Below the pieces are notes generated by a model, which did not search any database, was not told where the DNA came from, and worked only from the letters and a program-made list of their open reading frames with translations. The position numbers and the translations under genes are program-made. DNA of 64,000 nucleotides from Candidatus Helarchaeota archaeon. Lineage in GTDB: Archaea; Asgardarchaeota; Lokiarchaeia; Helarchaeales; RDOG01. How positions within the stretch are numbered: the first letter of the stretch is position 1; the number at the start of each line of letters is the position of its first letter. Location of the stretch: NCBI GenBank assembly GCA_019058315.1, contig JAHPZH010000002.1, forward strand, positions 480,001 through 544,000. The letters are read 5' to 3'. This document shows, piece after piece, positions 49,501 to 49,865 of this stretch.

Positions 49501-49508
49501 AAAAAAAA
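49501..49508 (-). terminator. Oligo-U terminator of the BHB ncRNA
   Basis: T8 on the minus strand right after the 3' arm of the terminal helix. Confidence 0.5.
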
Positions 49509-49509
49509 G

Positions 49510-49828
49510 GGAAGTTAATTTTATAGGCTGGATATTACCAAGGGAAATTATAAAATGAACCATGATATTTTTTGTAATTTTGCGCTTAAGAGAAATAATT
49601 GAATGGTCTTTGTTTTTTTAATGTTTTAAAGAATTTAGACCATAGATTCACATGAACTTTCTATTTCTTTGCAACTTTTGAATCTTTAAAAAATTAAGCG
49701 CTTTGTAAATAAGTGAAATTAATGAATCCCCGATTATCAAAGAAATAATGAATCTTGAATATTTTTGATATTTGGAATTATTTACTAGATTACCGAAATC
49801 GTTTTTCCAATTACCTAAATTAACTTCC
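49510..49828 (-). ncRNA. Unknown structured ncRNA whose termini form a BHB motif (predicted 288-nt excised/circular product, 49810-49523)
   Basis: 12-bp terminal helix, AGGU/GCCU central helix, two 3-nt bulges, several internal helices, upstream TATA and downstream U-tract. Confidence 0.7.
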
Positions 49829-49850
49829 TAATTAAATATACGAAGACAAT

Positions 49851-49865
49851 AATTTAAACTTTTAT
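49851..49865 (-). promoter_or_regulatory. BRE/TATA promoter of the BHB ncRNA
   Basis: AAAAAG-TTTAAATT about 23 nt upstream of the 5' arm of the terminal helix. Confidence 0.5.

Follow-up and report, generated by a model that had tools for sequence, protein, structure and literature searches.

[quoted passage not shown] The BHB circles described so far come from tRNA introns, rRNA precursors and one UTR intron, in addition to a single permuted SRP RNA. The latter belongs to Thermoproteus tenax, where it is circular (Plagens et al. 2015, PMC4731332); in Haloferax volcanii, tRNA introns and pre-rRNAs give circles, as does the intron in the HVO_1309 5' UTR (Schwarz et al. 2020, PMC7714728). Asgard archaea are reported to have circular rRNA transcripts (PMC12918454), and halophilic archaea form circular IS200/IS605 omega RNAs (PMC12558985), which have no BHB and are tied to insertion sequences. 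In the literature, we found no Asgard archaeon described with a BHB-ring gene that stands alone and belongs to a new family.

Here, we describe a candidate for such a gene. The window, i.e., the whole 64,000-nt stretch of DNA that was analysed, belongs to the 5.8 Mb genome of an Asgard archaeon, whose TFB and GtrA proteins find their closest matches in entries labelled Helarchaeota or Promethearchaeota in their sources. The RNA element lies on the minus strand of a 615-nt gap between tfb and gtrA that holds no ORF of at least 50 aa. Judged from the sequences of the locus and its relatives, this conserved stand-alone gene very probably yields a dedicated RNA ring. The full reading that we favour, i.e., a dedicated non-coding RNA gene producing a 290-nt ring that likely acts as an exonuclease-proof platform for protein binding, has in our estimate a probability of about 0.65.

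As in T. tenax SRP RNA, we find a stand-alone gene of similar size with a short leader and trailer that form a BHB around the predicted ring. In contrast to it, the Asgard insert falls outside the SRP and other Rfam families, SRP RNA is encoded elsewhere in the genome, and the interior is AU-rich, weakly folded and length-variable. With the circles of H. volcanii the element shares the canonical BHB and, by prediction, the EndA/ligase route, but it has no host tRNA, rRNA or mRNA, i.e., only a 40-nt exon hairpin precedes the U-tract. Like the omega RNAs it would be an archaeal circular non-coding RNA, given its predicted circularity; unlike them it is BHB-closed, single-copy and without a linked transposase or TnpB. 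The production route has a precedent in the Thermoproteus SRP RNA, while the RNA family itself is uncatalogued.

The anatomy of the gene and its direct neighbours is as follows (positions within the window):

48459 to 49397, plus strand: tfb (TFIIB family), convergent neighbour outside the RNA gene.
49501 to 49508, minus strand: U8 tract, resembling an archaeal terminator; a U-run follows the stem in all homologues.
49510 to 49520, minus strand: outer (exon) helix, 3' strand, from the 9-sequence alignment.
49521 to 49532, minus strand: BHB 3' half, with inner UCCAG (49532-49528), central CCUA (49527-49524) and bulge UAA (49523-49521).
Between 49522 and 49521, minus strand: predicted 3' cut, within the bulge UAA.
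49538 to 49546, minus strand: motif UUCCCUUGG, unchanged in all close sequences and able to pair with either inner BHB arm (UUCC/GGAA, UUGG/CCAG).
49582 to 49701, minus strand: 8-bp helix, 49701-49694 with 49589-49582, kept in the five closest sequences only.
49603 to 49643, minus strand: helix UGGUCU/AGACCA, 49642-49637 with 49609-49604, the best-kept interior helix (85% of cells paired, 9 sequences).
49522 to 49811, minus strand: predicted excised ring of 290 nt (in the other register 49810-49523, 288 nt).
Between 49812 and 49811, minus strand: predicted 5' cut, placed by EndA chemistry.
49806 to 49817, minus strand: BHB 5' half in the favoured register, with central UAGG (49817-49814), bulge UAA (49813-49811) and inner UUGGA (49810-49806).
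49818 to 49828, minus strand: outer (exon) helix of 11 bp, 5' strand; 98% of cells paired, both-side changes in 4/11 pairs (9 sequences).
49852 to 49863, minus strand: putative archaeal promoter with a purine/A-rich BRE-like run and the TATA box TTTAAAT (49858-49852).
50013 to 50477, plus strand: gene for a GtrA-family membrane protein, divergent neighbour; the same arrangement is found in genome G001.
50485 to 52299, minus strand: ABCE1/RLI, upstream on the strand of the RNA and the synteny anchor across the order.

An earlier note, made from the letters of this DNA, had placed a minus-strand TATA, a 5' arm (49828-49806), a 3' arm (49532-49510) and a U8 tract here, all of which are present at these positions. 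Its argument that a U-G pair fixes the strand does not hold; the strand is set by the bulge geometry, the TATA box and the U-tail. TTTAAAT is invariant and its spacing to the 5' arm nearly fixed in 8/8 aligned sequences, and CCAGCCUA in the BHB 3' half is likewise invariant, with the 3' bulge positions varying among A and U. A sigma-70 promoter scan, i.e., a model unsuited to archaea, gave nothing above shuffles.

The cut position within BHB bulges is established EndA chemistry, from which a simple order of events can be proposed. The TATA promoter would drive a transcript of about 330 nt ending at U8, whose ends, according to sequence and covariation, should pair into the 11-bp stem and the canonical BHB. 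A two-subunit splicing endonuclease would then cut both bulges and RtcB would join the ends. The host encodes two EndA genes (PF01974) and one RtcB gene (PF01139). Given this chemistry, there is a good chance that the products are a ring of 290 nt and an exon hairpin of 40 nt. Purifying selection on its interior, seen among close relatives, makes the ring the likely product of interest (see below).

Since the arms share a 5-bp helix, two BHB registers are possible. Register A has the centre AGGU/GCCU and yields 288 nt, while register B has the centre UAGG/CCUA with bulges UAA and UAA and yields 290 nt. A C-G/U-G exchange at one position and an advantage of 1 kcal/mol speak for register A. On the other hand, its pair beside the bulge is broken in homologue L152 and one of its central pairs in genome G004 (A.A), while register B is intact in 9/9 close sequences as well as in genomes G002 and G004. 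Under register B, all 12 sequences have an A in the middle of the 5' bulge, as do two canonical tRNA introns checked in the host genome; the 5' bulges of host tRNA introns read UAA and UAU, which the N-A-W form of the ring-gene bulge fits. We thus prefer register B with reasonable confidence, i.e., a ring from 49811 to 49522. The 288-nt circle (49810-49523) first proposed for the locus would accordingly be off by one base in register. The predicted ring junction is CCAGCCUAUA|AUUGGAAAAA for 290 nt and CCAGCCUAU|UUGGAAAAA for the 288-nt register.

With regard to chance, the BHB ranks best of 1178 in the genome by stem energy (-19.8 kcal/mol, spans up to 700 nt). Control geometries with 2- or 4-nt bulges or a 3- or 5-bp centre give 2-5 matches at -18 or lower per genome. 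Since such wrong geometries reach similar energies, the motif alone is not decisive. In the 0.9 Mb of non-coding DNA, however, no other U-tailed BHB locus reaches -12 or lower for any geometry tested. The whole transcript region folds better than 100/100 shuffles (z -3.4); the interior folded alone shows a z of -0.7 (+0.6 and -0.1 for two homologues), i.e., the folding signal is due to the terminal stem. Two more strong short BHB matches in the host genome (G000) are found at G000:C2:223089-223209 (+) and G000:C3:1335469-1335595 (+), with inserts of 117 nt and 123 nt. At the 23S rRNA gene (G000:C5:105496-108654), a strict scan of the 300 nt around its ends revealed no strong BHB processing stem of canonical form; a relaxed motif may escape such a scan. 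About 19 tRNA genes, many with called introns, cluster at C3:627504-631783 of the same genome.

Homologues were reached via related TFB and GtrA proteins and their contigs. When the element was compared with 60 GTDB relatives by BLAST, it gave AU-rich noise only, and pattern scans of metagenome, genome and viral contigs gave, by profile check, chance matches only. The protein route revealed eight further distinct Helarchaeales-like sequences that carry the element at this site (identity 67-86%), with predicted ring lengths of 287-305 nt in close relatives. The BHB and the U-run are kept in all close homologues: the central helix is 100% paired in 9/9 sequences, the inner 5 bp are 96% paired and the outer 11 bp 98%. 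The canonical hBHBh' form, i.e., a 4-bp central helix with a 3-nt bulge 3' of the centre on each strand, is found throughout and also in G001, G002 and G004. The stem of register B is 97.8% paired, with double changes at 4 pairs and in 7 cells among 9 sequences; only 0-3 of 500 shuffles score as high, and slid controls are 25-57% paired. This conservation with compensatory changes settles that the feature is real.

The similar energies seen 2-5 times per genome in the control geometries could be taken to suggest a MITE or a chance inverted repeat. This reading is already refuted by the comparative data, leaving it a negligible probability. The element is single-copy in the genome by BLAST and profile search, and no target duplication is seen. 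It sits at the same site in relatives with saturated synonymous sites, and its compensatory changes are accompanied by a conserved TATA box and U-tail. Two checks proposed by the earlier note turn out in favour of its reading: the element is no MITE, as indicated by its single copy at a fixed orthologous site, and the homologues show covariation, with compensatory changes in the closing stem. The same applies to its core proposal of a stand-alone non-coding gene with a conserved canonical BHB, which the homologues keep and for which EndA and RtcB are encoded.

The site itself shows some rearrangement, with inserted genes parting tfb from the RNA in two loci, L063 and L070. In the former, tfb is separated from the RNA by two additional genes, one of them DUF6935 (L063:5061-6100), and the RNA is still on the gtrA/ABCE1 side. 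In L070, an IS110-family transposase gene directly follows the U-tail of an intact RNA (L070:221-1606); this is a single metagenome copy that matches L068 apart from the transposase gene. At L072:570-776, the gap upstream of a gtrA homologue (78% identity) is only 207 nt long and lacks the element, so the RNA has disappeared from this lineage or changed its place there. We see no gene for a partner protein that accompanies the RNA consistently. Its surroundings are ribosome-related (ABCE1, aIF5A, PIN nuclease). Within the window, 53033-54481 (+) encodes a 482-aa fusion of an APH-like kinase domain and a C-terminal PIN_6 (Nob1-like) nuclease domain that is kept in relatives. The host genome has nine TFB-like genes.

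Two other genera, represented by three genomes, also have a stand-alone BHB RNA in the same neighbourhood, and its insert measures 349-448 nt. In G001 (same family, other genus), it lies opposite gtrA, is TATA-led and U9-ended, has an insert of 349 nt, and its canonical BHB has a stem sequence entirely unlike that of the host. In G002 (another family), it follows ABCE1 at a distance of 2.4 kb, shares its strand, and has a U-tail and an insert of 408 nt; its BHB core UUGG-UAA-UUGG with CCAA-CCAA is a compensated version of the host core. G004 holds the counterpart of the G002 RNA (448 nt) ahead of the same hydrolase gene. Four-fold (synonymous) sites are saturated among these genomes. Their interiors do not align with the host family, those of G002 and G004 barely align with each other, and a sequence-only model of the element does not detect the three RNAs. 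We thus infer their homology from position, architecture and the similarity of the BHB core.

Pattern searches over class and phylum recovered the full outer stem in G000, G002 and G004 only. In the third family of the order, the gene was not found near ABCE1 or tfb (three genomes, 82-88% complete), and the stretches downstream of ABCE1 in 40 other Asgard genomes hold no such U-tailed stand-alone BHB, both samples being incomplete. One look-alike, L427, was rejected as it sits in apparent coding sequence. A BHB-shaped match enclosing 586 nt between tfb and ABCE1 in a genome of another order (L394:3423-4012, G020:C57) is oriented opposite to ABCE1, has no U-tail and may be due to chance.

The contrast between closing stem and interior bears on the main rival explanation. 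Here, the ring would be a by-product, and the function would lie in the exons joined to a 40-nt hairpin or in splicing as such, the latter possibly by offering EndA/RtcB a decoy or sensor substrate in a lineage with many BHB introns. In its favour, G002 and G004 have nearly the same outer stem and BHB, whereas their interiors have diverged and their 4-fold sites are saturated, and insert lengths span 287 to 448 nt. Slow evolution is, however, expected of paired stems anyway, the exon stem sequence differs wholly between genera, and the joined exons, a 40-nt hairpin, give no tRNA and no ORF. Within the host genus, moreover, the interior is better conserved than 4-fold sites and holds invariant blocks. 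For four close relatives, interior identity is 77-87% compared to 61-72% at 4-fold sites of neighbouring genes; for the remaining homologues, the values are 55-64% and 26-45%, the latter at or near saturation. Among close relatives, the difference indicates purifying selection on the insert, bearing in mind that AU-rich alignments inflate identity. Overall, we consider the by-product explanation improbable but the strongest competitor of a functional ring.

The identity of the insert was checked against known RNAs. A search with Rfam 15 families in linear order found no minus-strand match at E up to 10, the sense strands of the G002 and G001 RNAs gave none at E up to 5, and local Rfam matches to either half of the ring were not seen. 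In linear order, the covariance models thus agree with the proposal that no known family is at hand. SRP RNA (RF01857) was rejected since its sole match is elsewhere (G000:C10:11707-12014), and so was RNase P RNA (RF00373), which matches elsewhere in the genome and not at the element. A tRNA intron or split tRNA was discarded as well, since ARAGORN finds none in the window or in either spliced product; that the RNA is neither tRNA nor SRP RNA, as judged by eye before, is in line with these results. An mRNA BHB intron of the cbf5 type was discarded, too, since no reading frame is restored and the spliced product has a longest ATG ORF of 15 aa. A coding ring is rejected, too: ring lengths are no constant multiple of 3, and the longest circular ORFs (21-52 aa) include none that is conserved.

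A very divergent or circularly permuted known RNA, e.g., an RNase P/MRP-like one, would agree with the size of 290 nt, with the published permuted, BHB-joined SRP RNA (PMC4731332), and with stretches resembling CR-I (49661) and CR-V (49706), the conserved regions that build the P4 pseudoknot in RNase P/MRP RNAs. The CR-I-like GAAAGUUC is, however, present in just 1/9 sequences and the presumed helix collapses in 4/9. Since intact RNase P and SRP RNAs are also encoded elsewhere in the genome, and the host, G001 and G002 RNAs have no Rfam match, we regard this explanation as very improbable.

The predicted ring has a G+C content of 25%, is weakly structured and repeats UUCA/AUUUC. All four interior complementary pairs listed by the earlier note are found in the sequence, but its picture of nested interior helices stands only in part. 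While UGGUCU/AGACCA is broadly kept, the other three show no family-wide conservation, i.e., the 8-bp helix has 7-8/8 pairs in 5 sequences and 1-3/8 in 4 distant ones, and the two AU-rich helices are sporadic among homologues. UUCA occurs 8 times per ring versus 2.85 times in matched intergenic windows (p 0.01, for a motif picked post hoc). It is above background in 8/8 sequences tested (p 0.01-0.33), if weakly so in the homologues (p 0.06-0.33).

The motif UUCCCUUGG, just 5' of the 3' arm, is invariant in 9/9 sequences. A similar motif and hairpin are found in G002; both are absent from G004, where the inner helix has 7 bp and a competing motif is lacking. Predicted ensembles contain the BHB inner helix and, as its alternative, a local hairpin. 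The inner helix reaches a probability of 0.81 in the host precursor and 0.00-0.66 in the homologues, where the low values result from competition by the local hairpin. In most sequences, the ligated junction region is also predicted to refold into an alternative fold. By refolding the closing region, UUCCCUUGG may limit splicing or shield the ring from being cut again.

The same competition could be taken to mean that the RNA remains linear, i.e., that the terminal stem only protects its ends while the alternative fold blocks the BHB and the RNA is seldom cut. In 6/9 predicted precursors, the UUGG/CCAG hairpin equals or exceeds the inner BHB helix in probability. A stem that merely protects ends would, however, need neither bulge to be kept, whereas the exact 3-4-3 geometry is found in 12/12 sequences, even in G001 where every stem base differs. 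With the 7-bp inner helix of G004 and its lack of a competing motif also counting against it, a linear RNA appears quite unlikely.

Invariance of the motif could also reflect base pairing of the ring, i.e., of UUCCCUUG with 23S rRNA or mRNAs, as a guide or folding chaperone. In 8/9 sequences, 8 bp can form without mismatch to a conserved part of 23S rRNA, near nt 1893-1900 of the host gene, and the neighbourhood is ribosome-related. Given about 4 kb of rRNA, such an 8-mer match is nevertheless close to chance (roughly 0.1 by simple count, with the 16S gene half assembled). Neither C/D nor H/ACA boxes are seen, and Rfam yields no guide-RNA match on the minus strand. Pairing of UUCCCUUGG with both BHB arms explains the invariance without an outside target, and the motif is altered in G002 and missing in G004. 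We therefore give a base-pairing role slightly less weight still than a linear RNA.

For the dedicated ring, an AU-rich, mostly single-stranded and length-variable RNA with modest UUCA/AUUUC enrichment points most readily to a protein-binding platform or sponge. We propose only tentatively that the ring serves an RNA-binding protein as an exonuclease-proof binding platform or sponge. The bacterial CsrB/RsmZ RNAs sequester proteins via repeated short motifs. The analogy extends to low structure, variable length and a repeated short motif; unlike CsrB/RsmZ, the Asgard RNA is predicted to be circular, its motif enrichment is 2-3-fold only and its binding protein is putative. More speculative yet is a family at the level of the order, i.e., that Helarchaeales have long (290-450 nt), fast-evolving and mostly unstructured circular RNAs with their own promoters, which are produced by the tRNA-splicing machinery, work as regulatory protein sponges or scaffolds and have their splicing set by a built-in refolding switch.

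The two candidate 20-mer junctions make the ring directly testable in existing sediment metatranscriptomes. The fixed chromosomal site of a ring gene with a changing interior suggests that dedicated regulatory circular RNAs are made by tRNA-type splicing in relatives of the eukaryotes. If this is true, the ring family of the Helarchaeales would be an archaeal counterpart of eukaryotic circular long non-coding RNAs.
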